This document shows positions 7,965 through 28,394 of a stretch of DNA of 64,000 bases, piece by piece. The stretch is from Candidatus Latescibacterota bacterium (lineage in GTDB: Bacteria > Latescibacterota > UBA2968 > GCA-2709665): the NCBI GenBank assembly GCA_965208835.1, contig OZ242358.1, forward strand, positions 4,000,001-4,064,000, read 5' to 3'. Each line of letters starts with the position of its first letter. The first letter of the stretch is position 1. A program made the position numbers and the translations under genes. The notes under the pieces are model-generated. The model was not told the DNA's origin. It did not search any database and saw only the letters and a list, made by a program, of their open reading frames with translations.

Positions 7965-8186
7965 TCATTCTGATCCAGGATCCTCACCAGGTTCGTTTCG
8001 GCGCGGGGCGCAGACACGTTCCGCATCCGCCGCTTCCCACGCGGCCAGTTGTTCCGCGGTGGGCACATACAAGCCTGCTCTCCTGTAGTCGTCATCACTA
8101 AACGGCGTGCCGCCGGCATGCCAGGCGCGGCCGACGATCGGGTCAGTGAATCTTGAACCTCCCGGAGCGGGGTTTCGTTCGTCCAT
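7965..8186 (-). CDS. small protein, WHxDGTP family copy A
   Basis: DPIVGRAWHAGGTPFSDDDYRRAGLYVPTAEQLAAW; ATG 4 nt after the repeat end; homologous to five other ORFs in the window. Confidence 0.7.
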   Translation of the reverse strand: MDERNPAPGGSRFTDPIVGRAWHAGGTPFSDDDYRRAGLYVPTAEQLAAWEAADAERVCAPRRNEPGEDPGSE

Positions 8187-8193
8187 GATAGTT

Positions 8194-8418
8194 TCAATCC
8201 TTGTTCTGAAGGTGGACTTCGTCCGGTCCGACCCGCGGGCCTTCGTCAGTGTCGTGCTTGGCTTTCATATCGTCAATCAGTCGCTCGGTCTCGGCCCAAT
8301 GGGCAAGCTGTTCCGGGGTCGGAACGGGCAGGTTCGCCCGGCGATAGTCGGCATCGGAGAAGGGCGTGCCGTCCGGGTGCCAGCACTGAAAGCCGGCGGA
8401 GTCTTGTCTGTTTCGCAT
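8194..8418 (-). CDS. small protein, WHxDGTP family copy B
   Basis: CWHPDGTPFSDADYRRANLPVPTPEQLAHW; ATG 4 nt after the repeat; stop is the TGA of the next repeat's ATTGAAAC. Confidence 0.7.
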   Translation of the reverse strand: MRNRQDSAGFQCWHPDGTPFSDADYRRANLPVPTPEQLAHWAETERLIDDMKAKHDTDEGPRVGPDEVHLQNKD

Positions 8419-8615
8419 AGCTGTTTCAATCCCTATTCTGTTTGAAGGTCTCCGCCGTGCGAGCCGGCGACGAACGCTCAGCCCTCCACCCGGTTGTACC
8501 TCCGCAACTCCTCCCGCAGCCGGTCATGCGGAAGCGCGCACAATATCACTTCGTTGAATTCCTTCATCTACTCGCCCGCCGCGATCATTTCGACCGCGAC
8601 AAGATAAATCCGATA

Positions 8616-8634
8616 TGTCGCAGGAATTGCGACA
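8616..8634. promoter_or_regulatory. palindromic operator TGTCGCA-N5-TGCGACA (candidate WYL site)
   Basis: Same arms and spacing as the palindrome at 41712-41730 upstream of the WYL gene. Confidence 0.55.
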
Positions 8635-8803
8635 ATCAGGTTAAAAAACCTACCATCGGCGGTGCGCTGTCAGCTGAAGGTTCGGGCCAACGGCCGGTCG
8701 CCCCTACCTAACGGTTATTGTTAAACCAGCTTCCAGGCTGGCGGGTGCCGACACTGACGAGCATACAAAAGCGATCTCTTTCGCTGAATTCTCAATCGTG
8801 CGC

Positions 8804-8850
8804 TTGACAACGTATTCCGTTCGTTTATATTGTTATGTTATAACATAACA
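8804..8850 (+). promoter_or_regulatory. sigma70 promoter with overlapping Zur box
   Basis: TTGACA-N16-TATATT followed by the perfect 20-bp palindrome TGTTATGTTATAACATAACA (8831-8850), upstream of the zinc-uptake cluster. Confidence 0.75.
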
Positions 8851-8990
8851 TCATTCAATCGTAGAGGACGACCCGCCTGTCATGAAACCAGCCGCAACCT
8901 GGCCTGTATCGACAGCCTCTACATCACGCCAGGCCGCGGGCGATCAGCCCGTTGAACTGCACCAGAACCTCGACTCCGGCGTAAACCTAA

Positions 8991-9150
8991 CAGCCCGTTG
9001 AAAAAGTCCATCCGGGCTACGGCCGGCCCTTGCGGTCGAAATACTGCGTTGTGCTCCCTCGCCGAATCGCAGGATGGGACTCGGTCGCGCGCCTTGTCTT
9101 CGACCACAATGGTTCGGCCTCGCCTGCAGAGCGACTTTATCAACGAACTG
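8991..9150. mobile_element. 160-bp MITE copy 1
   Basis: Imperfect TIRs CAGCCCGTTGAAAAAGTC / GACTTTATCAACGAACTG; flanked by CTAA direct repeat; near-identical to 56215-56374. Confidence 0.75.
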
Positions 9151-9253
9151 CTAAGCCCGTGGCAAAAGCCAGCCCAAATGCCGCCTCAACCGGCATCAAT
9201 GAAAGCGGCGGCGATGGCCTCGGCATTCGGTTTTCTGAAACGGTGACGATTTG

Positions 9254-10279
9254 ATGCGATTGAGTTACGACAAGGTGGTCTTTCTCGCATGGCTGTGTGC
9301 CGCCGCATTCTCGGCGGATCTCCACGCGGCAACGATGCTGCCCGGCGAGCCGATCGCGGCCGAGTACTCCAGCGGTGAAAGTCACGCTGACACCGGGCAG
9401 GCATCTTCGCTCTGGGATCAGGCTGCGACGTGGGTCCTGGATAAGCAACGCGATTTTCTCGTACAGCTGACAACCGAATTGCGAACGCTGCGCGGCAAGG
9501 ATGACGTCGGCTGGGCTTTGGTGCTGATGAGCTTTCTCTACGGTGTCTTGCATGCCGCGGGGCCCGGGCACGGGAAGGTCGTGTTGACGACCTATCTGCT
9601 GACCCACCGAAGCCGGCTGAATCGCGGGGTCGCCATGGGCGCCGCAGCCGGACTCCTTCAGGGGGTGACGGCGCTGGTGCTGGTCTACGTCCCGATCGGT
9701 CTGGCAGGTTGGCTGCCGTTGGAGACGGAGACGGCATCATTGTGGGCTACGCGAGTCAGTTTCACGCTGCTTGCGATCGTCGGACTCTACCTGTTGGTAC
9801 GCGCGGCAGGCGCCCTGTCAGAAAGCATTCGCCAATTGCGCCGAGAAACCGGCGAAGTCCACCACGACCATGCCGATCATGTACACGGGGCGGATGGCGG
9901 CTGCCGGCATCTGCCCAGCGCTGCAGAGATTGACACTGCCGGCAGCCGGCATGCGGCGGCTGGCGTGGTTTTGGCCATTGGGCTGCGCCCTTGCAGCGGA
10001 GCAGTGTTGGTGCTCGTCCTCGCCGCCGTGATGGATTTACACTGGCATGGGGCGCTTTCCGTGTTTGCCATGTCCATAGGTACCGCGATCACCGTTGTTG
10101 TCCTGGCCGTTATTGCGACGCGTGCGCGAGACTGGGCGAGTGAGGTCGTCGCTCACAGGTCGCCGTTGTGGACGCTGGCGGCCGGTGGCGTGGGCGCGTT
10201 TGGCGGCGCCCTTCTGGTTGTTTTCGCGCTGTGGCTGCTTAACACGTCGTTTGCACTTAAACCAGCAATGGGTATGTAA
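9254..10279 (+). CDS. nickel/cobalt transporter (RcnA/NiCoT-like)
   Basis: YGVLHAAGPGHGK motif, His-rich loop HHDHADHVH, GLRPCSGA motif, multiple TM helices. Confidence 0.85.
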   Translation: MRLSYDKVVFLAWLCAAAFSADLHAATMLPGEPIAAEYSSGESHADTGQASSLWDQAATWVLDKQRDFLVQLTTELRTLRGKDDVGWALVLMSFLYGVLHAAGPGHGKVVLTTYLLTHRSRLNRGVAMGAAAGLLQGVTALVLVYVPIGLAGWLPLETETASLWATRVSFTLLAIVGLYLLVRAAGALSESIRQLRRETGEVHHDHADHVHGADGGCRHLPSAAEIDTAGSRHAAAGVVLAIGLRPCSGAVLVLVLAAVMDLHWHGALSVFAMSIGTAITVVVLAVIATRARDWASEVVAHRSPLWTLAAGGVGAFGGALLVVFALWLLNTSFALKPAMGM

Positions 10280-10331
10280 GCGGTGGGCCCTGGCCTCGTT
10301 GTCCGCGCGAATTGTTATTAGGACTATCCGA

Positions 10332-10439
10332 ATGAATCCACAATTCTCTCCCCTTCGGGCCGGTATCGGAGCGCGCCTCGCGCTTGCCGGCGTCGCCGCC
10401 GGTCTGTTGTGGTTCGCGGTCGCATGGGCCCTGCTATGA
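10332..10439 (+). CDS. small single-TM peptide coupled to the metal ABC operon
   Basis: 35-aa hydrophobic ORF; TGA overlaps the ATG of the ATPase (ATGA). Confidence 0.5.
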   Translation: MNPQFSPLRAGIGARLALAGVAAGLLWFAVAWALL

Positions 10440-11185
10440 GTGCGCCAACGGACGGTACGATCCTGCATTTTGATAACCTGACCCTCGGATACGACCGCCA
10501 CCCCGCAGTCCATCATCTCGATTACGCCATCCGCGCTGGCGCCCTGGTCGCCGTGGTGGGACCGAACGGCGCCGGAAAGTCGACTCTACTTAAAGGGACC
10601 GCGGGCAGCCTCGCGCCCCTTGAAGGCGAAATCAGGTTGACGGGGATCAAAGCCTCGGACATCGCGTACCTCCCTCAACAGTCCGATATCGATCGGAGCT
10701 TTCCGATCTCGGTCTTCGACATGGTGGCCATGGGATTGTGGCGAAAGACGGGGGCTTTCCGTCGATTCGGACGTGAGGGCAACCGGAAGGTCGGCGAAGT
10801 CCTGGATATCGTGGGTCTGGGTGGTTTCGAGAAACGCTCCATCGGCACCCTCTCCGGCGGGCAGATGCAACGTTCCCTGTTCGCCCGCCTGCTCCTCCAG
10901 GACGCGCGGCTGATTCTTCTCGACGAGCCGTTCACGGCGATCGATTCGGCGACAGTACGTGACCTAAAGGGACTCATTCGTCGCTGGCACGGGGAGGCGC
11001 GGACGGTCGTCGCCGTCTTGCACGACCTGGATCAGGTTCGGACGGATTTCCCCGAGACCCTGCTGCTGGCCCGCGAGCGGATCGCCGCCGGTCCAACGGA
11101 GGACGTCCTTTCTCAGGGGAATCTCGATCGAGCGCGCCGGCTTACAGAGGCCTTTAACGAAGAGGCGGCCGTATGTGGGAGATAA
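10436..11185 (+). CDS. zinc/manganese ABC transporter ATPase (ZnuC/AztA-like)
   Basis: GPNGAGKST, AYLPQQ, LSGGQMQR, LLDEPF. Confidence 0.9.
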   Translation: MSAPTDGTILHFDNLTLGYDRHPAVHHLDYAIRAGALVAVVGPNGAGKSTLLKGTAGSLAPLEGEIRLTGIKASDIAYLPQQSDIDRSFPISVFDMVAMGLWRKTGAFRRFGREGNRKVGEVLDIVGLGGFEKRSIGTLSGGQMQRSLFARLLLQDARLILLDEPFTAIDSATVRDLKGLIRRWHGEARTVVAVLHDLDQVRTDFPETLLLARERIAAGPTEDVLSQGNLDRARRLTEAFNEEAAVCGR

Positions 11186-11291
11186 ACGCCAGGGCCACCT
11201 ACTGTCCTGTCCCAAAAACACCTCACCATTCGGCCGAATTCAGGCAACTTATTTCCGGGACTGAACACTACCCTCCTGTAAGGGGCGCGTG

Positions 11292-12158
11292 ATGTACGAT
11301 GCCGTCATCGCCCCGTTCGTTGAATTCGGCTTCATGCGTCGGGCCCTGGTCGGGTGCCTCGCCCTTTCGCTGGGAGCGACGCCCATCGGGGTGTTTCTGA
11401 CCTTGCGGCGGATGAGTCTTGCCGGGGATGCCATGGCCCATGCAATCCTTCCCGGTGCGGCGCTCGGGTACCTCGTTGCAGGGCTGTCGCTCGGCGCCAT
11501 GACACTCGGCGGGGTCATTGCGGGAGTGGCTGTGGCTTTGCTCTCCGGAATGGCGGCCCGAACCACCGTGGCCCGTGAGGATTCCAGCCTGGCCGCCTTC
11601 TATCTGATTTCCCTCGCCGTCGGGGTCGTGATCGTCTCGACGCGCGGAAGCAATGTCGACCTGTTGCACATCCTGTTCGGCACGGTACTCGCCTTGAACG
11701 ATGCGGCCATATTCCTGGTCTCGGGAATCGCCACGGTCACCCTTTTCGGGCTTGCCATCATCTACAGACCATTGGTGATGGAGTGTTTCGACCCGGGCTT
11801 TCTCCGCTCGGTCAGTCCCTTGAGTCCGGTTGCCCACTACAGCTTTCTCGTCCTGACTGTCCTCAATCTGGTGGGCGGGTTTCATGCACTGGGGACCCTG
11901 ATGGCAGTGGGCATCATGATACTTCCCGCCGCTGCCGCCCGGTTCTGGACGCGCGACGTCACGCCCCTGGTGGTCATCAGTGTGATTGCGGCCTTCCTGG
12001 GCGGGTTCGTGGGCTTATTGTTGTCCTATTACGCCAGTCTGCCTTCCGGCCCCGCCATCATCCTGACGGCGGGCGCGTTCTATCTGTTTTCGCTGTCTTT
12101 CGGACCTGACGGCGTAATCATGACGCGCCTCAGGCCACGCCGTCATCTGGAAGCATGA
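11292..12158 (+). CDS. zinc/manganese ABC transporter permease (ZnuB/AztB-like)
   Basis: RRMSLAGDAMAHAILPG, LLHILFG, LPSGPAII. Confidence 0.9.
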   Translation: MYDAVIAPFVEFGFMRRALVGCLALSLGATPIGVFLTLRRMSLAGDAMAHAILPGAALGYLVAGLSLGAMTLGGVIAGVAVALLSGMAARTTVAREDSSLAAFYLISLAVGVVIVSTRGSNVDLLHILFGTVLALNDAAIFLVSGIATVTLFGLAIIYRPLVMECFDPGFLRSVSPLSPVAHYSFLVLTVLNLVGGFHALGTLMAVGIMILPAAAARFWTRDVTPLVVISVIAAFLGGFVGLLLSYYASLPSGPAIILTAGAFYLFSLSFGPDGVIMTRLRPRRHLEA

Positions 12159-12185
12159 TTTTAATACCGAGCTACGAGTAAGCTT

Positions 12186-13199
12186 ATGACATCGAAGCGA
12201 TCTATCCTGTTTTCCGTCTTCGCCGCTTGTTTGATCGCCGTGTCAGGTTCGGGGACCGTCGGCGCCGATGCCCCCATTGACGTTGTCGCATCGTTCAGCA
12301 TCCTGGGTGATATGGTCCGGCAGGTAGGCGGTGAACGGGTGCGCGTCACTACCCTCGTCGGCCCCGACAGTGACGCGCACGTCTATCGGCCGACTCCGGC
12401 CGACGCGCGGGCCATCGCCGGGGCCAGGCTGTTGGTCGTCAATGGATTGGGCTTTGAGGGCTGGATAGACCGTCTCACGGAGGCATCCGACTACAGGGGG
12501 CCAGTGGTGACGGCGACAGCAGGCGTCGAACCCCGCAGGGTGGCGGATCCCGATCGCGGCGAAATCGATCCCCATGCCTGGCAGAGTCTGGCCAATGCCC
12601 GGATCTACGTCCGCAATATCGCCGACGGATTGGCTGCGATCGACCTGGCGGGGGCCGAAATCTATCGCGGCAACGTGGCGCGTTACATGAAGGAGATCGA
12701 CGAGGTCGAGGCACAGGTTCGCGAGGCGATCGGTTCGCTGCCGGTCGATCGGCGCAAGGTGGTCACATCCCATGACGCTTTCGGCTATCTGTCTGCAGCC
12801 TACGGCATCGAGTTCCATGCACCGGTCGGGTTCAGCACCGAAGCGGAGGCCTCCGCGGGTGACGTGGCCAGGCTGATTCGTCAGATCAACAGCGAGAAGA
12901 TTCCGGCGGTCTTCGTCGAGAACATCTCCGACCGCCGCCTGCTCGACCAGATCGTCCGGGAAACCGGAGCGAAGATCGGCGGCACGCTCTACTCAGACGC
13001 TCTGTCGAAGGCGGACGGGCCGGCCGGCACGCACCTTGACATGATGCTGCACAACATCCTGACGTTGTTCGCCGCCCTGTGCGACTCATCGGGTTCAGAG
13101 ACCAGGGGTGTACGTCTTGTCCGTGGAGCTGACGCAAGCCCTCGAACGCCGTGCGCAACCAGCTGCCACGAGAGTTGCGCGGCGAGGAGAAGCCCATGA
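12186..13199 (+). CDS. metal ABC transporter substrate-binding protein (ZnuA/AztC-like)
   Basis: VVASFSILGD, DAHVY, DPHAW, TSHDAFGY, LYSDAL. Confidence 0.9.
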   Translation: MTSKRSILFSVFAACLIAVSGSGTVGADAPIDVVASFSILGDMVRQVGGERVRVTTLVGPDSDAHVYRPTPADARAIAGARLLVVNGLGFEGWIDRLTEASDYRGPVVTATAGVEPRRVADPDRGEIDPHAWQSLANARIYVRNIADGLAAIDLAGAEIYRGNVARYMKEIDEVEAQVREAIGSLPVDRRKVVTSHDAFGYLSAAYGIEFHAPVGFSTEAEASAGDVARLIRQINSEKIPAVFVENISDRRLLDQIVRETGAKIGGTLYSDALSKADGPAGTHLDMMLHNILTLFAALCDSSGSETRGVRLVRGADASPRTPCATSCHESCAARRSP

Positions 13200-13657
13200 A
13201 TAGCAAAGCGCTTTCCCGGATCCTGGAACGAGCCGAGGCGTTGTGCCATGAGCGCGGCGCGCGGCTGACCGAACAACGCAAGGCCGTGCTTCAACTGCTG
13301 TGCGTATCGGACAAACCACTCAGTGCTTACGAGCTGTTGGAACGCATGCGCGGCGTTGTCAGAAATCCCGCGCCGCCCACGGTCTACAGGGCATTGGATT
13401 TCCTGCTTGGGCAGGGCCTGGCGCACAGGCTCGAGAGCCTGAACGCATACGTGGGCTGCGCACATCCGGATCATCCGCACGCCAGCCAGTTCCTGATCTG
13501 TGATGACTGTGGCGACGTGGCCGAGGTTGAAGACCCCATTGTGGTCAGGAGCCTGAAAGCGGCAGGCAAGGAGATAGGATTTCGTACCAGGCGGCCGGTC
13601 GTCGAACTGCTGGGAACCTGTGCGCAGTGCATTTCGGATAGAGACGGTCTTGCTTGA
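13196..13657 (+). CDS. zur: Fur-family zinc uptake regulator
   Basis: RLTEQR, SAYELL, PPTVYRALDFL, FLICDDCG, GTCAQC. Confidence 0.8.
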   Translation: MNSKALSRILERAEALCHERGARLTEQRKAVLQLLCVSDKPLSAYELLERMRGVVRNPAPPTVYRALDFLLGQGLAHRLESLNAYVGCAHPDHPHASQFLICDDCGDVAEVEDPIVVRSLKAAGKEIGFRTRRPVVELLGTCAQCISDRDGLA

Positions 13658-13805: not shown

Positions 13806-15026
13806 ATGCCCCTGTCAGAGAGACTTCCCGTTACTGTCCTTTCCGGCTTTCTCGGCGCAGGCAAGACCTCGCTTCTCAACAACGTGCTCCACAACCGCAA
13901 GGGCATGCGCGTCGCGGTCATCGTCAATGATATGAGCGAGGTCAACATCGACGCGACGCTCGTTGAGCGCGGCGGTGCGGAACTCTCGCGGACCGAGGAG
14001 ACGCTGGTCGAGATGTCGAACGGCTGCATCTGCTGCACGTTGCGAGACGACCTGCTTGCCGAAGTCTCACGGCTCGCACAGGAGAGACGCTTCGACTACC
14101 TGCTCATCGAGTCCACCGGGATTTCGGAGCCCATTCCGGTCGCGCAGACCTTCACCTTCGAGGACGAAAAAGGTGTGAGCCTGAGCCAGGTTTCGCGCCT
14201 CGATACCATGGTCACGGTCGTGGACGCGGCGAGCTTTCTGCGGGATTACAACGCCGCCGAAGCGCTCCAGGACCGCGGTGAGTCGCTGGGCGAAGAAGAT
14301 CAACGGACGGTGACCGACCTGCTTATCGACCAGATCGAGTTCGCCGACGTCATCGTGCTGAACAAGCTCGATCTCGTAGGCAACAATCAGGCTCTCGAGG
14401 TCGAGGCCATCGTGAAAGCGCTCAACCCCGGCGCGAAGATCCTCAAGGCGACGCGCGGACGGGTCCCGCTCGAATGCGTGCTCGACACGGGCCTGTTCGA
14501 CTACGATAAGGCGGAAAGCTCCGCCGGCTGGATTCGAGAGCTTCGGGGTGAGCACACGCCGGAGACCGAGGAGTACGGGATCTCGAGTTTCACCTATCGG
14601 ACGCCACAGCCCTTCGACGCCGAGAAGCTCTGGGCGTTCCTGCACGACGCCGAGAACTGGACCGGCGTGCTCCGTTCGAAGGGTTTCTTCTGGGTCGCCG
14701 CCGACCATCGGGTCGCCTACGAGTGGGCTCAAGCCGGCGGGGTCAGCGACGTGAACCCCTCGGGGATGTGGTGGGCAGCCGTGCCCTGCGAACACTGGGA
14801 ACACCCCGAAGATCAGCGACCCGACAAGCAGCCGGGCTGGCATTCCCGCTTCGGCGATCGCGCGCAGGAGCTCGTTTTCATCGGCCAGGAGATGAACGAG
14901 GCGGCGATACGCGCTCGCCTCGACGCGTGCCTGCTCGACGAACGCCTCGCCTCCGCCGACAGCAATGCCTGGGCAGAGCTCCGGAACCCGTTTCCGGAGC
15001 TTATCCTGGAAGAGGCTTCAGCCTGA
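13806..15026 (+). CDS. COG0523 zinc metallochaperone GTPase (ZigA/YciC-like)
   Basis: [30 protein letters not shown]-terminal CobW_C domain. Confidence 0.9.
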
Positions 15027-15195
15027 CCGAGTATGCCTCACCCGTTTTTGCGAAAGGGTCACTCTACATCGATACCGGAGACGGGTTCATGCCGCGGGAT
15101 TGATTTCCGAATCTCCTCCGAGCAAGCATACCGGGGCGTGTGCCGCTATCCGGTCCCATCTTCGGTCTCGCCGTGTCACAGGGAGAAGAGGGTAT

Positions 15196-15498
15196 ATGTT
15201 GATCAACACCTCACGCCCGAACCGCGCACGGGTTCGCCGTATCAAAAACGCATTGCGCGAAGCGTTGAGCCTACCTGATGACACGGCGATTTCGGTCACC
15301 GAACTGGCGTGCCTCGAAGAAGGCTGCCCGCCTGTTGAGACCATGTTTGCTCTGCTTCAGCGCGATGCCCCACCGAATCAACACAAGCTTCACAAAGCCA
15401 CGGACGCCGTTGACGCCGAAGACCTGTTGCAGGTCTGCACGTCGTGGGGATTCGACGTCCAACTTCCATTGCTCAAACGTCTGCTCCAGGGGGACTAG
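15196..15498 (+). CDS. hypothetical small protein in the metal cluster
   Basis: RBS-like GAGGG; SVTELAC.EEGCPPVET motif; abuts the next gene. Confidence 0.65.
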   Translation: MLINTSRPNRARVRRIKNALREALSLPDDTAISVTELACLEEGCPPVETMFALLQRDAPPNQHKLHKATDAVDAEDLLQVCTSWGFDVQLPLLKRLLQGD

Positions 15499-16938
15499 AT
15501 GAACAAGCCGAATTTGAAAATTCCACCTCGAAAAGTACCCGTTACGATCCTTACCGGCTTCCTCGGCTCCGGCAAGACAACCCTGCTCAACCGGATTTTG
15601 AGCGAGGAGCACGGCAAGCGCATTGCCGTAATCGAGAACGAGTACGGGGAGGTCGGCATCGATCAGGGGCTCGTCATCAACGCTGACGAGGAGATCTTCG
15701 AGATGTCGAACGGTTGCATCTGCTGCACGGTGCGCGGAGACCTGATTCGCGTACTCGGCAATCTCATGAAGCGCCGTGACAAGTTCGACTATGTGTTGGT
15801 GGAAACCACAGGGCTCGCAGACCCCGGTCCGGTCGCTCAGACCTTCTTCATGGACGAGGAGATTCACGGGGAGTTTTCGCTCGACGGGATCGTCACGCTC
15901 GTCGATGCGGCCCACGTCGAGCAGCAAATCGGCCGGAGCGACGAAAGCACGGAGCAAATCGCGTTCGCAGACGTCCTGGTTCTCAACAAGACGGACCTCG
16001 TGAACGGCGAGGCGCTCGACAGGCTCGAAGCCCGGCTGCGGGACATGAATCAAATGGCGCGAGTCGTGCGCAGCGAGCGGGCGAACGTGTCCCTCGATAC
16101 TGTACTCAACCTCGGCGCCTTCGACCTGGACCAGGCGCTCGAGCGTCGTCCCACCTTTCTCGAGCCGGAGTATCCGTTCGAATGGACTGGCGTCTATTCG
16201 CTCGATATCGGGCGCTACGAACTCAGCCTCGCCGATGGACCCGATCCGGCGATGTCCCTCGTCGTCGCGCCCGACCAGGGCACGAATGACGCCGCCCTCC
16301 GCGAGGGTGCGGAGTGGTGTGTACGGCGATTCGGCGAACCCGCGGAGCTCATTTGCCCGGGGGACGAGATTCCAGTCGGAAGGCACGTGAACCTCCGGCT
16401 CGACTCTCCAGGGCATAAGTCGTTCTTCTTGACAGTCAATACGCGGGCGAGGGTAGGCCTCTACGCTCAACACATCGCGGAGGAGTTCGATCTCAAACTG
16501 AAAAACGCGGATGGGGCGACAGTCAGCCTGGAGGACAGTCCACGCTCCGGGATCACCTCCAAAGAGAACGGCGCCCCGCGTGTTAAAGGAGCGGTGGTTC
16601 CAGTTGAGGTCGAGCGGACATGGGTCGCACAGCACGAGCACGACGACGAGGTCGGCTCGTTCGCGATCGAGAGGAGCGGCGACGTCGATCCTGAAAGTCT
16701 CAACGCCTGGCTAGGCAAACTGCTCCGTGAGCGCGGGGTGGACATCTTCCGAATGAAGGGCTTCATCAGCGTGGCAGGTGAGTCGCATCGCTTCGTCTTC
16801 CAGGGGGTTCACATGCTCTTTGACGGCCAGCGGGATCGCGAATGGGGGGACGCGCCCCGCCGCAATCAGCTCGTGTTCATCGGCCGCAACCTCGATGAGC
16901 AGAGCATTCGGAAGGAATTCGAAGCATGTCTAGTTTAA
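15499..16938 (+). CDS. CobW/COG0523 GTPase with internal insert
   Basis: [46 protein letters not shown]. Confidence 0.9.
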   Translation: MNKPNLKIPPRKVPVTILTGFLGSGKTTLLNRILSEEHGKRIAVIENEYGEVGIDQGLVINADEEIFEMSNGCICCTVRGDLIRVLGNLMKRRDKFDYVLVETTGLADPGPVAQTFFMDEEIHGEFSLDGIVTLVDAAHVEQQIGRSDESTEQIAFADVLVLNKTDLVNGEALDRLEARLRDMNQMARVVRSERANVSLDTVLNLGAFDLDQALERRPTFLEPEYPFEWTGVYSLDIGRYELSLADGPDPAMSLVVAPDQGTNDAALREGAEWCVRRFGEPAELICPGDEIPVGRHVNLRLDSPGHKSFFLTVNTRARVGLYAQHIAEEFDLKLKNADGATVSLEDSPRSGITSKENGAPRVKGAVVPVEVERTWVAQHEHDDEVGSFAIERSGDVDPESLNAWLGKLLRERGVDIFRMKGFISVAGESHRFVFQGVHMLFDGQRDREWGDAPRRNQLVFIGRNLDEQSIRKEFEACLV

Positions 16939-16960
16939 ATGGACGGCAGGAGGCGTCTGC

Positions 16961-18312: not shown

Positions 18313-18313
18313 G

Positions 18314-20625: not shown

Positions 20626-21149
20626 TCAGCAGTCTGGCGTACCTGACCCGCGCCACGGCGTCAAACGTGGCCACCAGCGGCGCACGTTCAGGCAGTAGGT
20701 CTCGTTCGACCCCCGAATCTTTCTCGGAGTTTCGGCTCTTCATAAAGCAGCACGGTCAGGTGGAACGCGGCGAGCATCACCCCGGCGTACGCCGCAAGCC
20801 GGGCCCGGCCAAACAGTAGCGCCTGCCCTGAAATGATGATCAGCACGGAGATGTACATCGGGTTTCGCACGAACCGATAGAGGCCGGAAGCGACCAGCAT
20901 TTCGGTTTACGCCACCGGCGCCGGTGTGCCGCGCCCCTCGAGGACGAAACGGGCGAAGCAGTCCAGCAGGCAGGCCAGACCCGTCGCAACCGCCGCAACC
21001 CCCATTAATCGCTCGCCGGGCAACCCGAGCAGCAGTGGCTGTATCGTCCAGCCGACCAGTGCGAACGGGACGACACCGGCAACGACAGCCGGAGCGACCC
21101 AGAAGAAGACGAACGACCCGACGATCGCACGCGTACGTGTGCGCTTCAC
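20626..21149 (-). pseudogene. isoprenylcysteine carboxyl methyltransferase (ICMT/PEMT) family pseudogene
   Basis: EGRGTPAPVA-TAA-TEMLVASGLYRFVRNPMY in a single frame (nonsense at 20907-20909); the C-terminal YCLNVRRWWPRLTPW lies in another frame. Confidence 0.75.
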
Positions 21150-21186
21150 GTTTCAATCCTTGTACTGATGGGAGTGACCAGAGATC
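21150..21186 (-). repeat. solitary CRISPR-like repeat of the second (AAGGATTGAAAC) family
   Basis: Minus strand CCATCAGTACAAGGATTGAAAC, directly followed by the GTG start of the pseudogene. Confidence 0.65.
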
Positions 21187-21292: not shown

Positions 21293-24200
21293 TCAATATT
21301 CCGGTGGTGAGAGATCGATCGCCCATTCTTTGAACTTCGAGACGTTGACGTCGGATCGGTCGAGGAGTGTAAGGAGTTCCTCCTGGCGGGGTTGCCCAAA
21401 GACAACCCGGTAGGCTGCGAGTTGACGTTTGAGGCGTACGAACGCTTCGACCTCCGTCGTGTATGGCAATAGTGGTACATGGCGCTGCACGAAGCAGTCT
21501 CCGGGGGCGATCCAGTGAGGTACCAGGTCGCTTTTCCCGGCGGCTCGCGCAGCCTGGTCGGCCAGCGCGAACATCTGTCTCCAGATATCTTCACCCGCCC
21601 TCCATGACGTCAAGGCGTCGTGCGCGTGGCGAGCAGCGACGTTTCGCCGGACCGCATGGCCCTTATAACGGTGAATCCGGCCTTCGCGTTGCTCAAGATC
21701 GACCGGATTGCCCGGAAGGTTCCAGTGGACCAGGGAGTGACACCACGGATGGAAGTCGAGCCCCTCCTGTCCAATCGACGTACTGGCAAGCACAAACGGC
21801 CGAAACGGGCTATTGAAAGCGTCCCTCACGACGTCCTGGCTGATGTGATCACCTTCGTCCGTTCGGATGTGGCCGAAGCGTAGCGCGAACGCCGTGCGAA
21901 GGCGGGTTACTTCGAGTTCAGGCTTTGTTCCACTTCCTCCCGCACCTTCTGTCTCAAAGAACCTCGCATGGACGCGAGAACGCATTGGACGTACAACCTG
22001 GATGAGTTTGCGGGCGCATCTGCCGGCGATCTCGTCACCGCTGGCGTCGCCGGACCACGACTCCTGGTCCCACAGCAGGTGCCACTGCTCGTCAAGTACT
22101 GCCTGCAGGTTCCCGTGGCGGCAGTAGCGAAGTACCAGTCGCCAGTAGGCCGAACCATCGCGCTCTTCCGCTCCTCTGTCGGCAAGCTGGCGCAGCAGCG
22201 CCGTCACGGCAGGCTGATTGAAGAGACGCCAGAACGCGACTGCAATCATGGCCGCGAACCGGCGACGTGAATCATCGCCAATTCCCGTCCCGTTTCTCAG
22301 GCTGCGTGCCGCGAGAATCGCCGGCGAACCAATGGCGACCTCGGTGAGCAATCTCGCAAGATTTGCCGGACGCCGGCCGAGTTTTCGCGGATCGACCCTG
22401 AGCAGATCGTCGATGTACGCACCGAAGCCTTCCGGATTTGGACGACCCGTGTCATCCGATAATCCAGGAAGTTCGCCATCCGCCCACGTGCCAAGAAAAC
22501 TGCGCAGATCCGGATCCATCAACAGCGGCGCCATCCACTCCCACCTGTCATCAATATCTCCTTCTTGCGGGTTAGGAAGCTTCGGATCGGCAAGAAGTTC
22601 GTCGACCCGGTCTCGCACCCACGCCCGGCGATCCTGTCCAGACCGAAAGTCCAACGGATGCGCCCGGTCCGCCAGCGGAAGGCACGGTATGAGCAGCAGC
22701 AGGAGACGATGGCGGGAAAGGCCGCCCAATTTCGACTTTGCGAGCCTTAAAAGTGGTCTCTGCTGCTCGGCAAGTTTCTCATATGACCCATTCCGGCCAC
22801 GCGTCATCAGTCGTTCAGCTTCGTAGCTTAGTACGGCGCTGACAACGTCGGGCACCACGTTCCAAGCCGAAAACAACAGGCGCTTCGTTGCTTTTTCCTT
22901 GCCCTTGAAGGGTCCTTCAAGCGGCCAGTACGGAAGCGTCGGCGGCATCCAAAGAAGGCGCCATATCCCCTTGTCGATCAACTCCCCGACCAATTCACGC
23001 AGCTTGGCACTTCCGGGGTCGATGCTTTCCCACCTACGTATCGTCGCTGGCGTCAAGAACGCCGACTTATGTTGCTGAAGAACCTCGACGATCTTTCCCG
23101 GCGTGTTAATTGCCTCGTCGAGTAGTTCGTTGAACCTGTAACCTCGCATGAAGTGAGCCAAATACGGAGCTGATTTCCAAAACGGCATCGGATCGCGGTC
23201 ACCGACGGCCCGAAACAACGCGTCGGCGGCCAGGTACTGGCGCACGTCGGTTGAGGTCACGGTCGCGTTACTCGGGACCTCTGCCACCATCGCGTCATTG
23301 TCTTCACTGGCTGCGACGCGCTCGGATCGCGCCATCACGTTCCTGAGCGTTCCTTCGACCTCGCGTTTCGCTTGTTCGACTCGCCCCGGCCCATCCGGTT
23401 CTCCCGCTGCCGCGCGCTTTAATGCTGACCCGAAACGCGAGAACTGGCTCTTAATCTCTTCGACAACCGCGTCATCGTCGCCATACAAGAACCTTGTTGT
23501 GGCCAGGAAGTCCTCGTAGTGGTCCTCGTGTTCGATCTCCGCATCTGCGGTGTAGAGTTTGTACGGCGTCGCGGAGAGCAAGAGCGTCCGCACACGCTTA
23601 CCGTCGTGCGCTTTGGCCTGGAACAACTCATGAGCCAGGTGCGCCGCGGGGTCTCGCTCGCCGTCACTTGTGTCGAGCAGCGACTTAAAGCGCTGGAACT
23701 CGTCCAGGATTACGAGGTCGGGCTCCAGGGCCTTGACGCACACTTTGGCGAGTACCCGGCGCAAATCCGATATAAGCCGGTCTCGCCGGTACCGCAGATC
23801 GTCCGGCCAGTAATTCCGGTAGTAGCCGAACGCACTCAGGATTTCTCTAAATCTGTACTCCAGACCGTGGCACTCATGAAACGCATTCTCAAACCTTCGC
23901 CGTATTGAGTCTTCGATAGGTCGGGGGCGGTTGTTGAGGAACCATCGCCAGTCATCCCGGTTCGTAATCCATCCCTGCAGGAAATTCATAAGCGCCGTGC
24001 GCCGTTCGGTCAGGGGATCGAGCAGTTGAAACAGCACCTCCCGTTCCGGGCGCTGGCCGGCGGATTGCCCCATGTTGAAGGATGTTCCCGGCGTGAAACT
24101 GACGAAGTTCAGCTTGCTGTCGACGAGACCTGGTTCGCCTTCCTTACGCGCCAGTTGCGTGGCCAACATCGTGAGACGTGTCGCCAATGCGAACGACCGT

Positions 24201-24487
24201 TCTTCGGCGCCTCCGATCCTCAGCTTTGGGAGATTGGCTCGTGCGATGCCGGCATTGCTGCAAATGTAGATGATGTCGATCCGTTTGACGTCGTCCCAGA
24301 GGTGATCGATGGCGCGCGCAATGATACCGCGGGCGACCAGCGTCTTCCCAAGGCCCACCTCGTCGGCCACCAGGAAGCGTCCTGTACTGTCTTCCGCAGT
24401 GAACAAGCGGTGGAAGGCATGTTCTACTGTCCGCCGTTGGAAGGATTTGAGTGGTTTAAGACCCGCGTCTACCGATGGACGCTTCAT
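21293..24487 (-). CDS. SF2/SNF2-like helicase of a putative defence operon
   Basis: ADEVGLGKT, ILDEFQ, LLLSATP, QEGLDFH, EQREGRIHRY. Confidence 0.85.
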   Translation of the reverse strand: MKRPSVDAGLKPLKSFQRRTVEHAFHRLFTAEDSTGRFLVADEVGLGKTLVARGIIARAIDHLWDDVKRIDIIYICSNAGIARANLPKLRIGGAEERSFALATRLTMLATQLARKEGEPGLVDSKLNFVSFTPGTSFNMGQSAGQRPEREVLFQLLDPLTERRTALMNFLQGWITNRDDWRWFLNNRPRPIEDSIRRRFENAFHECHGLEYRFREILSAFGYYRNYWPDDLRYRRDRLISDLRRVLAKVCVKALEPDLVILDEFQRFKSLLDTSDGERDPAAHLAHELFQAKAHDGKRVRTLLLSATPYKLYTADAEIEHEDHYEDFLATTRFLYGDDDAVVEEIKSQFSRFGSALKRAAAGEPDGPGRVEQAKREVEGTLRNVMARSERVAASEDNDAMVAEVPSNATVTSTDVRQYLAADALFRAVGDRDPMPFWKSAPYLAHFMRGYRFNELLDEAINTPGKIVEVLQQHKSAFLTPATIRRWESIDPGSAKLRELVGELIDKGIWRLLWMPPTLPYWPLEGPFKGKEKATKRLLFSAWNVVPDVVSAVLSYEAERLMTRGRNGSYEKLAEQQRPLLRLAKSKLGGLSRHRLLLLLIPCLPLADRAHPLDFRSGQDRRAWVRDRVDELLADPKLPNPQEGDIDDRWEWMAPLLMDPDLRSFLGTWADGELPGLSDDTGRPNPEGFGAYIDDLLRVDPRKLGRRPANLARLLTEVAIGSPAILAARSLRNGTGIGDDSRRRFAAMIAVAFWRLFNQPAVTALLRQLADRGAEERDGSAYWRLVLRYCRHGNLQAVLDEQWHLLWDQESWSGDASGDEIAGRCARKLIQVVRPMRSRVHARFFETEGAGGSGTKPELEVTRLRTAFALRFGHIRTDEGDHISQDVVRDAFNSPFRPFVLASTSIGQEGLDFHPWCHSLVHWNLPGNPVDLEQREGRIHRYKGHAVRRNVAARHAHDALTSWRAGEDIWRQMFALADQAARAAGKSDLVPHWIAPGDCFVQRHVPLLPYTTEVEAFVRLKRQLAAYRVVFGQPRQEELLTLLDRSDVNVSKFKEWAIDLSPPEY

Positions 24488-26319
24488 GATCGTGGCTCCG
24501 GTGCGATTGCCTCCTCGACTGCCGTCCAAATACTGAATAGTTCGTCTGGCACGATCAGGCGCCCTTCTTCAGTCTTCCGAAGTTCGTCGATCAGGCGACG
24601 TACCGGCTTCAGGCGATCGGGGTCTCGGGACGCGGTACGGACGAGATCATCCAGCAAGGTCTCACCGCTCTGCCCTATTCCCCAGTTAGAGGAAGGTTCT
24701 CCTTCTCCGCTATCTTGCGCCCAGCCGAGTACAGTGTCGAGTCCGCCCAGCAACGCCCTCAGGAAACGAAGGAACTTCTCAGGGGTGTCCAGCAATCCCT
24801 TGAGTACGTGATGCATGCGATCTTCAGGCATACCGTGAGCCGGAAGTCGCAGGGTCATGCGGACGTCGTCCACGCCCTGGACGTTGACACTCAGCCGAAA
24901 GGCGATGAATGCCGTCAGACGCACAATGGGCAGATTCCAACTGATCGTTTTCTCCAGGCGCAGTGCTTGATCTTCGGCTACGGAGACGGGCCAGGCTTCG
25001 ACCTGGACATCGTCGGCCATTTGAAATTCGGGCCCGGTGATAGCCAGCGTCCATGAGTCGCCTGAGGAACCGCATCTCACTTGCAGGTTAGAATTCAAGA
25101 GGTCGTCCCCCAAGGCTTCAAGGCGTTTTCGGGCAGCGGCGATGGCTGGGTCTTCTATCTCCGGATCGACTCTCTTATACTTCATGCACAGCTTCCGAAA
25201 TCCGGCGTCAAGGAACCTATCGATGCCCTGACCGCTGTGGCCCCCTTTGCGTCCCTTCTTTCCCGTGATGGATGCAACCATTTCGACGTTTCTGCCATTG
25301 AACGCCGACGCTGTCAGGTTGGCGGAACCGACGTACCACGTAACGTCCCAACGGTGCTCCACGGCGATCATCTTGGCGTGCAGCCCCGACGGGCGATCAA
25401 TCCCGCCAGTCATCGGTTCGTTCTGCTCAGCCAGACTTTCCTCGGGCTCCCCATGCGCGGTATCCCTAAGGACGAATACATCGTTCCATTCCGCCAGTGC
25501 ATCTTCAGCGAGTCTGTCGAGTTCCTCCTGCCTGCTCACGAGCATTCGGTCGTTACCGCTCAACTCCCTGACGACCCCCAGTCCGGTCCGACTGATGAAC
25601 GGCGCCACCGCAAGTGTTCGATATCCATTCGACGGCGGTCGCCAGTGACGGCGACGCCTGGACAATCCGATTGAATGGAATTCGACAGGAGATGCGAAGC
25701 CGTCCGGGGCGGGAAACCTGATTCGTGAAACCTGATCGGCAAGTGCATCAATGCGATCGGCGACATCCGTGAGAACCGGGTTTACGGCCAGACGAGGTAG
25801 CGCTTCGAGGAATTCACGGAGTGGTCGGCTGACGGCCGCACGCCTCCTGCCCCGAAGCCGCGCCTCGCTCGCGAGCGCAACGTCCCACGAACGGTCAAAT
25901 GTCAGATTGCGCGACAGGATTGCAACGCGCAAAACGTCTTCGGCATCCTCCCCCGAGGCAACAAACCGAGCCGCCCACACCTTCGGGTGGAATGCGCCAC
26001 CGTTTGGGGCGCGTACGGCATGCACACTCGGCTCGAGCATTGAGTACAGAGGTCTCACGTTGCGTGGAATTGCAATGCCCGTTTCATCAACAAACACGTG
26101 GATACGGTCGCCAGCGTCACGGATCGCCTGGTGCAGCCTCAGTGGATCTTGAAGCAACTCATTCAACCCTTCGTCCGTATGCGCGAGCACCGATAACGGA
26201 AGCAGCAGCATCGTTTCCAGATCCAGGGTATAGGTCGTCAGTACAGCAAAGTCGAGGTCGTATCCGCTCGGCGGGCGGAGCAACTCGAAGGCTGTGGTAC
26301 GCGATTCGGGCGATAACAT
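24484..26319 (-). CDS. phospholipase D-family (HKD-type) nuclease-like protein
   Basis: FHPKVW...SRNLT and LHAKMI...YVGSANLT motifs; overlaps both neighbours. Confidence 0.8.
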   Translation of the reverse strand: MLSPESRTTAFELLRPPSGYDLDFAVLTTYTLDLETMLLLPLSVLAHTDEGLNELLQDPLRLHQAIRDAGDRIHVFVDETGIAIPRNVRPLYSMLEPSVHAVRAPNGGAFHPKVWAARFVASGEDAEDVLRVAILSRNLTFDRSWDVALASEARLRGRRRAAVSRPLREFLEALPRLAVNPVLTDVADRIDALADQVSRIRFPAPDGFASPVEFHSIGLSRRRRHWRPPSNGYRTLAVAPFISRTGLGVVRELSGNDRMLVSRQEELDRLAEDALAEWNDVFVLRDTAHGEPEESLAEQNEPMTGGIDRPSGLHAKMIAVEHRWDVTWYVGSANLTASAFNGRNVEMVASITGKKGRKGGHSGQGIDRFLDAGFRKLCMKYKRVDPEIEDPAIAAARKRLEALGDDLLNSNLQVRCGSSGDSWTLAITGPEFQMADDVQVEAWPVSVAEDQALRLEKTISWNLPIVRLTAFIAFRLSVNVQGVDDVRMTLRLPAHGMPEDRMHHVLKGLLDTPEKFLRFLRALLGGLDTVLGWAQDSGEGEPSSNWGIGQSGETLLDDLVRTASRDPDRLKPVRRLIDELRKTEEGRLIVPDELFSIWTAVEEAIAPEPRS

Positions 26320-27530
26320 CAGGCGGCCAACCCCCTGTGAAGGTCGGTGAGAAACTGCCGGACGCGAACCCAGCGAAAGTCCATCCGACCAACGCCGACC
26401 CATGGTTTCCACTCCATCAGGCGACTCCGGTTTCCAAGTCGTGCGCGTGCTCCCTTCAGGTGTGACTCGCGTTCGGTAACCAACTCTCTTAACTGTTGGT
26501 CGTTGGCGATCCTGCCGGCATTCAACTTGGTAATGTGTCGAGACCAATCTTGAATGAAGAGTCGTTGGTGATGTGGAGCAAGCCCGCCGCGTCGAGCTAC
26601 CAATTCCCAGAGCGGATCCGGATCGAATGGTTGAGCTTCTTCCGCCTCACGCCCCGCCCATTCAGTGAGCTCTGCACGGAACGAACTGATTAATTCGCCA
26701 TCATCGTCAGTGTCAAGCATCTCGCGACGGTGTTCGGCCACAACCAGATTGTAGAGCAGTGGCATGCCCTCGACGTGTAGAGAGAACCGCCGGGCTAGTT
26801 CCACGGTATCACGAATACTCTGAGGTGCGCGGAGGGCGTCCGGATCGTCCCAGAAGTCGTCCCCGGGCGAATCGGATCCATTGCGGGCCAGCCACGCCAG
26901 CAGGGCACCGGCGCAACGTTCCTCCAGGCGGCCGAGAAGGAAGTCGGCCTCGTCACGGTTCAACGCGAAGGATGCCTCCCACGGAAAGCCAGCCGGCGGC
27001 GACGGCATACGCGGATGCCAGTGCGCATCACGGCTCCAGATAACGCCTGGATCGTCCGCCCGCCCCACACTGCCGCGGCCATCCGCAAGCGCGTCAAAGT
27101 GCGAGTGGTACCAACTCAGGCTCTGCTGCGGCCTAAAGATGCCCCATCGAGTCAGCGCGCTCCAGTATATCGAACTTGGTAACCGGACGAGTGAGTGGCG
27201 GGCGTATACGCCGATGATGCCCTTCTTGTCTTCGCCCTGTTCCAATCGTCCGATAAGATCGACTTCCGCCTGACGCGCGGCTCGCTCCACGTCTACACTC
27301 CTTACCCGACGCGTCTCCAACCTCCGGTAGATCCATGGAATGAGGAGTACATAACGCAGCCGCGTCTGGATATAAGACGTGCCGGGAAAAAGTGCGTCAG
27401 AGATCGCGTCCCGTAGGTTTCCGAGCCCCATCTCGTCGAGCGTGCCCTGCTCGTTGAACAGGTCCAGCACCCGCCGCATCTTGTCGCGGTCGCCCGCCGT
27501 CAGGTCGAGCCAGGTCAACGTCGCCTGCAT
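26319..27530 (-). CDS. DUF6361-like protein, first gene of the defence-type operon
   Basis: LTWLD...GTLDEMGLG.LRDAISD.LFPGTS.IQTRLRY...PSSIYWSAL..WGI, recognised from memory as DUF6361. Confidence 0.7.
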   Translation of the reverse strand: MQATLTWLDLTAGDRDKMRRVLDLFNEQGTLDEMGLGNLRDAISDALFPGTSYIQTRLRYVLLIPWIYRRLETRRVRSVDVERAARQAEVDLIGRLEQGEDKKGIIGVYARHSLVRLPSSIYWSALTRWGIFRPQQSLSWYHSHFDALADGRGSVGRADDPGVIWSRDAHWHPRMPSPPAGFPWEASFALNRDEADFLLGRLEERCAGALLAWLARNGSDSPGDDFWDDPDALRAPQSIRDTVELARRFSLHVEGMPLLYNLVVAEHRREMLDTDDDGELISSFRAELTEWAGREAEEAQPFDPDPLWELVARRGGLAPHHQRLFIQDWSRHITKLNAGRIANDQQLRELVTERESHLKGARARLGNRSRLMEWKPWVGVGRMDFRWVRVRQFLTDLHRGLAA

Positions 27531-27557
27531 TGCGTGAGTCCTTGTACTGATGGATTC

Positions 27558-27749
27558 CTACCGGGAACCGCCGGACTGACGACGTCGACGCGCACATTCA
27601 GCATCGGCCTTTGCCCACAGAGTGAGCTGGGAGAGCGTAGGCACAGGCAGGCCGGCGTTGCGGTAGTCCTGGTCACGGTAAGGTGTCCCGTCCGCATGCC
27701 AGCACCGGCCTGGGCCACCTGTCTGTTTGTCGACGACTCGCTTGGTCAT
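27558..27749 (-). CDS. small protein, WHxDGTP family copy C
   Basis: GPGRCWHADGTPYRDQDYRNAGLPVPTLSQLTLW; ATG 4 nt after the repeat. Confidence 0.7.
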   Translation of the reverse strand: MTKRVVDKQTGGPGRCWHADGTPYRDQDYRNAGLPVPTLSQLTLWAKADAECARRRRQSGGSR

Positions 27750-27756
27750 ATTGGTT

Positions 27757-27960
27757 TCAATCCCCGTTCTGATGAAAGATCCCCAACGGGTTTTGTCTTT
27801 CCGCTTCAGCCCAGGCTAATAGCTGTTCATCCGTTGGGGGAGTCAATCCCGCCTTGATGTAGTCGGCTTTGTTGAAGGGCGTTCCGTCTTCATGCCAAGC
27901 CTGACCAACAATCGGATCGGCCATTTTTCTGCCTTTGGTGATGTTGGGATCTCTTGGCAT
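27757..27960 (-). CDS. small protein, WHxDGTP family copy D
   Basis: DPIVGQAWHEDGTPFNKADYIKAGLTPPTDEQLLAW; AAGGAAGG RBS; stop inside the repeat. Confidence 0.7.
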   Translation of the reverse strand: MPRDPNITKGRKMADPIVGQAWHEDGTPFNKADYIKAGLTPPTDEQLLAWAEAERQNPLGIFHQNGD

Positions 27961-28111
27961 GTCAAACCTTCCTTGATTCGGCGTTTATGATTATGGGAGC
28001 GTCTAATTTTGATTCTTTGGCGTCTTGCCAACCGTCAAGGCAGGCTTTCATGGATGCACGGGAAAAGGTTGGGCCGTTTCTGTAATTTGTGCGCTTGTCG
28101 CTGTAGGGATT

Positions 28112-28332
28112 TCAATCCTTGTTCTGATGGAAGATCCCCAACGAGTCGACCTGCTGGCGCTGGTCGTCTTGGGCCCACTCGAGCAGCTGCTTGGCCGTGG
28201 GACAACCTGTCCGGCACGGCGATACTCTTCCAGTGTGCAGGGTGTACCGTCCTCACGCCACATACGAGAGATGCCGCCTGACTGTCTGTTTGGGCCTTTG
28301 ATGAGGCGGAATCTTCTTGGTCGCTTGGGCAT
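28112..28332 (-). pseudogene. small protein, WHxDGTP family copy E (1-nt frameshift near 28200)
   Basis: MWREDGTPCTLEEYRRAGQVV, then PTAKQLLEWAQ...GIFHQNKD* in the adjacent frame. Confidence 0.65.
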
Positions 28333-28394
28333 GCTGGTTTCAATCCTTGTTGTGACGGAAGATACTCGCAGGGCACCGGCCACTGTTTTTGTTT

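Follow-up and report, generated by a model that had tools for sequence, protein, structure and literature searches.

The 64,000-nucleotide stretch of DNA analysed here, hereafter the window, covers positions 4,000,001-4,064,000 of the single-contig 5.18-Mb genome of a Candidatus Latescibacterota bacterium (contig OZ242358.1, assembly GCA_965208835.1). It carries a type I-C CRISPR system and, downstream of the array of that system, solitary copies of a different CRISPR repeat, several of which stand directly in front of start codons. A repeat of a subtype that is now absent from the genome is built into the start, and sometimes into the stop, of a family of small genes and of two further genes of the defence island. 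Across the genus the arrangement is maintained, even in genomes that have lost every cas gene tested. An earlier sequence-only reading of the locus had described the repeat as translation punctuation, and had proposed that Cas processing of the transcript would part each open reading frame (ORF) from its ribosome-binding site (RBS), making the encoded proteins a sensor of Cas loss.

The type I-C locus and the solo repeats

The resident system has the full type I-C gene set, no cas6, and a 32-nt hairpin repeat with an 11-nt tail, in agreement with the definition of this type; the defining gene set is the one given in the available part of PMC5965381. Its Cas1 is the sole Cas1 of the genome, and a k-mer scan of the genome revealed no second CRISPR array. 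A promoter-like site lies in the array leader (30658-30631, minus strand). The I-C repeat folds into a 7-pair hairpin (-15.1 kcal/mol) followed by the 11-nt tail. This repeat, the degenerate terminal repeat of the array and a solo repeat at 28423-28392 all fold into a G+C hairpin (-15 to -19 kcal/mol) that is followed by 11 nt of tail, and the latter two are the only hairpin repeats outside the regular array units. The features of the locus are collected in Table 1.

Table 1. Genes and repeats of the locus, in window positions, listed in the direction of the minus strand
Feature	Position	Strand	Details
Type I-C cas operon: cas3, cas5d, cas8c (Csd1), cas7, cas4, cas1	30900..38500	-	Pfam E 1.8e-12 to 4.5e-172
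Type I-C CRISPR array	28616..30360	-	26 exact 32-nt repeats (GTCGCCCCCCACGCGGGGGCGTGGATTGAAAC) at 30360-28682 plus degenerate terminal repeat
Degenerate terminal I-C repeat	28647-28616	-	reads ..GCGGAGTGATAC, then 5 nt and the ATG of ORF F
Small ORF F, 71 aa	28395..28610	-	ATG 5 nt past terminal I-C repeat; family E 1.9e-34
Solo I-C-type hairpin repeat, variant sequence (GTCGCTCCCCGCGCAGGGGAGCGGATTGAAAAC)	28392..28423	-	hairpin -18.6 kcal/mol, z -3.5
I-B-type copy	28337..28373	-	then CAGC-ATG; 25/27 to consensus; relic C-terminus ..IFRHNKD* before it
Small ORF E, frameshifted	28112..28332	-	family E 3e-6
I-B-type copy ending GATTGAAAT	28109..28145	-	no start codon within next 7 nt
Small ORF C, 67 aa	27757..27960	-	family E 8e-25; stops QNGD* in next copy
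I-B-type copy (..AACGGGGATTGAAAC)	27754..27790	-	then CAAT-ATG; 24/27 to consensus
Small ORF D, 63 aa	27558..27749	-	family E 2e-33; paralogue of ORF F
Degenerate I-B-type relic (GAATCCATCAGTACAAGGACTCACGCA)	27531..27557	-	abuts zacA ATG
Defence operon (PADLOC): ZacA (DUF6361), ZacB (PLD-like), ZacC (helicase)	21293..27530	-	E 2.6e-121, 7.7e-162, 0
I-B-type copy	21150..21186	-	abuts GTG of membrane methyltransferase-like gene
Membrane methyltransferase-like gene	20688..21149	-	GTG directly after repeat copy; in-frame TAA at codon 81
I-B-type copy (..AATAGGGATTGAAAC)	8423..8459	-	then AGCT-ATG; 22/27 to consensus
Small ORF B, 74 aa	8194..8418	-	family E 5e-33; stops QNKD* in next copy
I-B-type copy	8191..8227	-	then TATC-ATG; 23/27 to consensus
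Small ORF A, 73 aa	7965..8186	-	family E 3e-30; 3' end and stop inside degenerate copy
Degenerate I-B-type copy	7955..7991	-	28/37 to solo consensus, counted by eye on the sequence

The motif that drew attention to the locus, GATTGAAAC followed by four nucleotides and ATG, had been reported at 8191, 8423, 27754 and 28337; it is present there on the minus strand, and the spacer is exactly 4 nt in each case. With at most one mismatch, GATTGAAAC has 49 matches, as compared with 13.4 +/- 3.7 in shuffles (maximum 24). A longer, 17-nt pattern (CAGWACRRGGATTGAAA, at most one mismatch) occurs six times in the 5.18-Mb genome, always on the minus strand within window positions 8192-28354, and its reversed control has no genome match. 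The shuffle and reversed-pattern controls therefore exclude chance as the source of the motif.

The motif had been taken for the tail of the local I-C repeat. Our comparison revealed that it belongs instead to another repeat, 37 nt long and unstructured, of which the copies represent the 3' 27-37 nt. The I-C repeat was rejected as its source, since the 17 nt upstream match the other repeat and the G+C hairpin is absent. The copies are alike over ~27-37 nt upstream of the tail (..ATCTTCCATCAGAACAAGGATTGAAAC), a part unrelated to the I-C hairpin, and the six that were folded reach -2.3 to -9.3 kcal/mol, no better than shuffles. In total, the window contains eight such solo copies, all on the minus strand and at most 20.5 kb downstream of the I-C array; those at 28109 and 21150 and the degenerate ones at 27557-27531 and 7991-7955 had escaped the sequence-only reading. 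The relic that abuts zacA has lost the 3' handle of the repeat but retains AAGGA, at a distance of 8 nt from the ATG; the same repeat relic-zacA junction is present in the sister genome G011.

The 24-27-nt core of these copies forms arrays in sister genomes, with 67 matches in G010, 82 in G012, 39 in G003 and 36 in G006. In G010, a true array of the 37-nt repeat, with a period of ~74 nt, adjoins cas6b (Cas6b_N, Cas6b_C), a Cas8b-size gene, cas7 (DevR/Csa2), cas5, cas3, cas1 and cas4. This array and its cas6b operon identify the repeat as one of the type I-B kind, and the window copies consequently as solo type I-B-like repeats. Neither an I-B array nor I-B cas genes were found in the window's own genome. 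The 82 genome-wide core matches of G012 include a long I-B-type array (L028 10965-16529; L042); no Cas6b_C match was found in that genome, and the cas operon next to the array is I-C-like and belongs with a second array, of the hairpin type.

A small-protein family and its repeat junction

The repeats accompany six paralogous small ORFs, A to F, five of which are intact and one frameshifted. The paralogues are 48-53% identical to ORF A and are united by the core WHxDGTP[FY]..DY..AGL.VPT..QL..W; ORFs D and F are 83% identical in nucleotide sequence over 169 nt. The genome has no family members other than these six, all of which fall in this region. ORF E carries a one-base frameshift, which is probably real, given that its gapless sequence is identical in contigs from two studies.

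The sequence-only reading had also placed stop codons inside the repeats, at the TGA of ATTGAAA. This is correct for the ORFs at 8418-8194 (QNKD*), 27960-27757 (QNGD*) and 28610-28395 (GAD*), the last of which ends within the solo hairpin repeat 28423-28392. It also holds for the frame-corrected ORF from 28332, whose second frame ends FHQNKD* at 28114-28112, in the copy 28109-28145. The stop codon of ORF B lies 7 nt ahead of the next ATG. Most family ORFs in other genomes have their own stop before, or at the very start of, the next copy.

No match for the family was found in Pfam, NCBIfam, PHROGs or PADLOC. An AlphaFold2 model built from a 38-row alignment, with a mean predicted local distance difference test score (pLDDT) of 76.4, shows a strand bridge and two helices, one short and one long; Foldseek found no match to this model in the PDB at E <= 0.001, and the ESM Atlas yielded no usable match. 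A profile search of 1.84 billion cluster representatives returned 43 proteins at E <= 1e-3, most of them shorter than 120 aa. In two longer proteins of the representative library, P0029 and P0033 (451 and 464 aa), the family core motif is flanked by an N-terminal part of ~300 aa that has no Pfam match and by weak C-terminal helix-turn-helix-like matches, which stay below the Pfam cut-off.

The small-protein family is almost confined to one genus. Among 60 relatives, it is present in 12 of the 14 of the same genus, in one of the seven belonging to other genera of the family-rank lineage, and in none of the 39 beyond. A homologous-protein search gave one foreign protein. A scan of genome contigs gave nine loci, all in metagenome-assembled genomes labelled Latescibacterota or Gemmatimonadota, most of which duplicate genomes already compared. 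A metagenome scan gave one genuine locus, a broken copy of the ORF A type, and one spurious one. Viral contigs contained no match to the family or to the repeat core; in the absence of such matches and of any PHROG match, a phage origin is unlikely.

The small ORFs are real genes under purifying selection, as indicated by a median ratio of nonsynonymous to synonymous substitution rates (dN/dS) of 0.37 over 145 pairs with dS of 0.1-2, and by values of 0.12-0.49 for most close pairs. Five subfamilies, recognised by eye in the alignment, are common to several genomes, and the diversification is therefore old. As to what the proteins do, our guess would be that they are small binding or regulatory proteins of defence islands.

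Immediately upstream of the copy 8459-8423, at 8478-8567 on the minus strand, there is a 29-aa ORF (MKEFNEVILCALPHDRLREELRRYNRVEG) that looks similar to the last part of a read-through frame in G008 (L029) and may represent a second type of small ORF in the cassette clusters.

The junction between repeat and ORF was followed with a family profile, which gave 38 matches in the window and in 13 loci from relatives. An I-B-type copy precedes 23 family ORFs in 12 genomes. The distance from copy to ATG is 4 nt in 13 of these cassettes, 5 nt in eight and 3 nt in two, while the letters of the spacer vary. The copies match a 27-nt consensus at 22-27 of 27 positions. All 23 have G at -9 and A at -8, and 22 have G at -10, but only 10 contain an exact 8-nt handle (ATTGAAAC). 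Between cassettes, the repeat 3' 27 nt show a mean pairwise divergence of 0.19-0.20 per site. The corresponding values are 0.46-0.69 for fourfold-degenerate sites in the adjacent ORFs and 0.41-0.45 for the repeat 5' 10 nt (155 pairs, two upper divergence bins). The family and the repeat core co-occur in the same 13 of 15 genus genomes, and neither was found in G004 or G005. When 65 solo copies from the window and 18 loci were considered regardless of what follows, 28 were followed within 0-7 nt by an ORF start, counting ORFs of 30 aa or longer. These ORFs comprise 23 family members, two methyltransferase-like genes (in the window and in G002), one zacA (in G011) and two short GTG ORFs, which may be there by chance.

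At first sight, the cassettes resemble an array with giant spacers, having repeat-to-repeat periods of 221-232 nt. One could therefore imagine that Cas1-Cas2 once integrated a fragment of ~190 bp as a spacer and that later duplications spread the cassette. A family ORF does stand directly behind the last array repeat in the window, and both arrays of G012 terminate in one. New spacers, however, are added next to the leader, whereas the ORFs are found at the trailer ends, and five divergent subfamilies that already possess the junction fit ancient duplication better. We regard such an origin by adaptation as extremely improbable. The likeness to a canonical I-B array served by Cas6b is confined to the repeat, whose 3' 24-27 nt are those of the sister-genome arrays, including the AUUGAAAC handle; the period is not ~74 nt, and the "spacers" are paralogous genes under purifying selection.

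The repeat tail as a proposed gene junction

The reading that we consider moderately probable is that the locus contains promoter-less small-gene cassettes delimited by solo I-B-type repeats, the tail of the repeat being reused as junction and RBS, and that the cassettes are co-transcribed and recombine. Each cassette consists of a repeat copy, 3-5 nt and a family ORF of 57-74 codons that reaches up to or into the next copy. The 3' tail of the repeat (AAGGATTGAAAC) would be reused as an intercistronic junction, with its GGA core, whose spacing to the ATG is constant, acting as a putative RBS. The TGA of the repeat provides the stop in some of the cassettes, and a stop 7 nt ahead of the next start would allow coupled translation. 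The same repeat relic would supply the junction for zacA and for the membrane methyltransferase-like gene.

Several observations agree with a role of the repeat in translation. The 3' end of the 16S ribosomal RNA (..GGAUCACCUCCUUUCU) has the canonical tail ..CACCUCCUUUCU, and its CCUCCUU, at genome position 2185209, pairs with AAGGA. Shine-Dalgarno (SD)-like motifs precede 38% of 2732 long ORFs, against a background of 13%. A GGA that hardly varies and keeps its spacing to the ATG is in line with an RBS. The description of the repeat as translation punctuation is thus supported by the spacing, the GGA and the constraint, but repeat stop codons are used by only some of the ORFs.

The cassettes are probably transcribed together with, or after, the precursor of the CRISPR RNA (crRNA), since they follow the array in its own orientation and no terminator-like site was found on the minus strand from the leader to 27000. 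Read-through from the array into the cassettes is accordingly plausible from the layout of the sequence. Recombination between copies probably explains the differences in copy number between genomes, and the GGATTGAAAC tail, which I-B and I-C repeats have in common, was probably where recombination attached the cassettes to either type of array. Contigs of other samples (runs X7 and X5), which show presence at the DNA level only, contain joints 27531-28112 and 28133-28337 that skip the cassettes between them, and hint at cassette loss by recombination.

A number of findings weigh against this reading. The RBS function of the tail is deduced from sequence; a search for transcript data gave no RNA run containing window positions 27400-28800. 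The SD distance claimed for AAGGA is only approximately right, as the end of AGGA lies 11-12 nt from the ATG, within the range observed in this genome but in the long tail of a distribution with its mode at 7 nt. The constraint spans all 27 nt, including a CTTCCATCA block that an RBS does not explain; something else, a protein, an RNase or recombination, may therefore read the repeat as well. ORF C has no repeat before it and uses its own AAGGAAGG six nt upstream of the ATG, and several family members elsewhere likewise use their own SD without an upstream repeat. The copy-to-copy contig joints are of low depth with short flanks. The compared genomes are close kin, so that the counts overstate independence. 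Finally, 37 of the 65 solo copies are not followed by a start codon in the next 7 nt.

The last point would be expected if the solo copies were inert debris, decaying remnants of a lost I-B array with the small ORFs merely among them. The genome has indeed lost any I-B system and array, two of the copies (27557-27531 and 7991-7955) are degenerate, one ORF is frameshifted and a neighbouring gene has a nonsense codon. Decay alone, however, does not account for repeat 3' 27 nt whose divergence is lower, by a factor of two to three, than that of synonymous sites in the adjacent ORFs, also in genomes without an array, nor for a GGA that is invariant or nearly so. Likewise, the spacing of 3-5 nt is held across subfamilies with protein identities of ~50% or less, although the spacer letters vary. 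We therefore judge inert debris to be rather unlikely.

If cassettes with a repeat-derived RBS are indeed what the locus holds, they would represent a new way in which the debris of an array can become a signal for gene expression. Array trailers could then carry protein-coding cargo that surveys of repeat-like elements miss by design.

The proposal that Cas processing controls these genes has to be considered separately. It holds that cleavage parts each ORF from its RBS and its stop codon, so that the proteins are made only when crRNA processing fails and act as a safeguard or as a sensor of Cas loss or of anti-CRISPRs. Cas6b of other species cuts 8 nt before the repeat end (as described in the available part of PMC5965381). 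In the present copies, a cut of this type would be made at AAGG^AUUGAAAC; it would separate the GGA from the ATG and, where an ORF has its stop codon in the repeat, would split the GAT-TGA. Furthermore, three sister genomes pair Cas6b with arrays of the I-B-type repeat, and the constraint on all 27 nt, beyond the GGA, fits recognition by a repeat-binding protein.

In this genome, however, both the repeat class and the nuclease are wrong for such a sensor. Type I-C uses Cas5d, and no Cas6 was found in the genome by four queries (PF01881, PF10040, PF17262 and the Cas6b protein of G010), which leaves a single I-C system. Cas5d recognises the base of a stem-loop and a 3' overhang, and leaves an 11-nt tag (same part of PMC5965381), whereas the I-B-type copies fold no better than shuffles. 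Given that Cas6 is missing and that these copies have no hairpin, one would not expect any Cas enzyme of this genome to cleave seven of the eight junctions, and translation would thus not be gated by crRNA processing here. ORF F, between two hairpin repeats, is the only ORF that Cas5d might release. The terminal I-C repeat in front of it has the altered ending ..GCGGAGTGATAC with a GGAG, as reported, but the ATG follows after 5 nt and not 4; an 11-nt cut at this repeat would leave the GGAG on the ORF F side.

The relatives do not favour the proposal either. Cas6b is found in three of the 15 genus genomes (G003, G006 and G010), as opposed to cassettes in 13, and Cas1 in 10. Intact ORFs with the junction are present in 10 genomes where no Cas6b was found, and G002, G007 and G009, in which no Cas1 was found, have intact family ORFs behind repeat copies. 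Intact cassettes without Cas1 argue against an addiction-type or lethal safeguard toxin. The 8-nt handle is no better in the Cas6b genomes, being exact in one of five cassettes against nine of 18 elsewhere, small numbers from kindred genomes. Moreover, most family ORFs outside the window end at their own stop codon. Taken together, these observations make a processing switch of this kind very improbable.

A narrower version concerns the Cas6b relatives and the ancestor of the locus, where the copies would be Cas6b substrates and the small genes would be translated only from the unprocessed transcript. In such genomes, cleavage would strip the RBS and leave ORFs that stop in the repeat as non-stop messages. 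We consider this unlikely. If true, the output of the small proteins would report the crRNA-processing capacity of the cell and, more generally, CRISPR repeats would delimit the units of a recombining gene-cassette array. The cassettes also provide a compact test bed for the question of whether crRNA-processing enzymes gate translation.

Known systems, neighbouring genes and other repeats

Ectopic CRISPR repeats are so far known as guide-like RNAs, among them regulators of toxins or of cas genes and phage decoys, whereas the repeats described here form part of gene structure. CreTA and CreR are such RNAs (available parts of PMC9458426, PMC8501985 and 10.1101/2023.03.10.532045). The likeness to CreTA, CreR and crRNA-like RNAs lies in copies that stand off-array by a cas locus, are partly degenerate and are conserved among relatives. 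In the known cases a small guide RNA steers the effector to a promoter; here the copies bracket coding segments of ~190 nt and abut their starts. They are also of a subtype for which the genome has no cas genes, and no pseudo-spacer target was found.

One pair nevertheless has the layout of a CreA- or CreR-like mini-array that could guide Cascade to a promoter, the mode of action reported for ectopic repeats near cas loci in the same three sources. The hairpin repeat 28423-28392 is followed, after ~17-27 nt, by a second repeat-like element, the I-B-type copy 28373-28337, and a similar pair with a similar intervening sequence occurs twice in G011. The pair fits a spacing of 15-60 nt; all other copies are at least 221 nt apart. 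When the whole genome was searched for targets of this one candidate with a TTC protospacer-adjacent motif, the best matches to the first 14 nt of the pseudo-spacer had two mismatches (two, at distant loci). A mini-array would also leave the other seven copies and the fixed ATG distance unexplained, and we consider it highly improbable as an account of the locus.

A survey of repeat-like elements (10.1101/2023.03.03.530964) kept hits outside ORFs and defined mini-arrays by a spacing of 15-60 bp; by these criteria, as stated in the part of that source available, units like the present cassettes would go unscored. Single repeats outside arrays are also known as phage solitary repeat units, or RNA anti-CRISPRs (Racr), according to the available part of PMC10651486. 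Those are viral and serve as decoys for Cas proteins, whereas the present copies are chromosomal, lie in a defence island and have no viral-contig match. In the literature searched, no description was found of protein-coding genes between CRISPR repeats or of a repeat tail used as an RBS.

Two further comparisons concern gene organisation. Integron cassettes are promoter-less small ORFs in one orientation that have conserved repeat boundaries, depend on one promoter and vary in copy number among strains. The present locus differs in that it has no integrase or attC-like folded site, and its boundary is a CRISPR repeat that also supplies a putative RBS. Coupled operon junctions, in turn, share the stop 7 nt before the next ATG and a GGA-containing motif upstream; here, however, the motif belongs to a conserved 27-nt module of CRISPR origin, which is reused ahead of unrelated genes.

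Apart from zacA, the gene outside the small-protein family that starts at a window repeat is the membrane methyltransferase-like gene. Its resemblance to isoprenylcysteine carboxyl methyltransferases was judged by eye only, and its first 80 aa have no Pfam, PADLOC or NCBIfam match. G002 has the same repeat-GTG junction, and its homologue reads past the codon 81 point, for at least 133 aa within the 400 nt read.

Outside the window, at G000:C1:47700-48300 of the same genome, a tandem repeat with a period of ~77-100 nt is rich in GGATTAAGCAGGATT and contains two GGATTGAAAC words. It was rejected as a CRISPR array, as it matches neither the I-B nor the I-C type.

The window also contains other repeated and regulatory-looking elements. 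At 8804-8860 on the plus strand, a strong sigma-70-like promoter (TTGACA-16-TATATT) in front of a gene of that strand shares sequence with a long palindrome (..TTGTTATGTTATAACATAACA..), and looks like an operator site. Nine intergenic copies of a 29-nt palindromic element (GTAGGGGCGACCGGCCGGTCGCCCCTAC-like) are found at window positions 5666-8708 and 39694-43888, and other repeat families cluster at 39300-41940. Finally, two paralogous genes for GTPases of the CobW/G3E family lie between the cassette clusters (13806-16938, plus strand), with stretches of DNA that are 70-78% identical.

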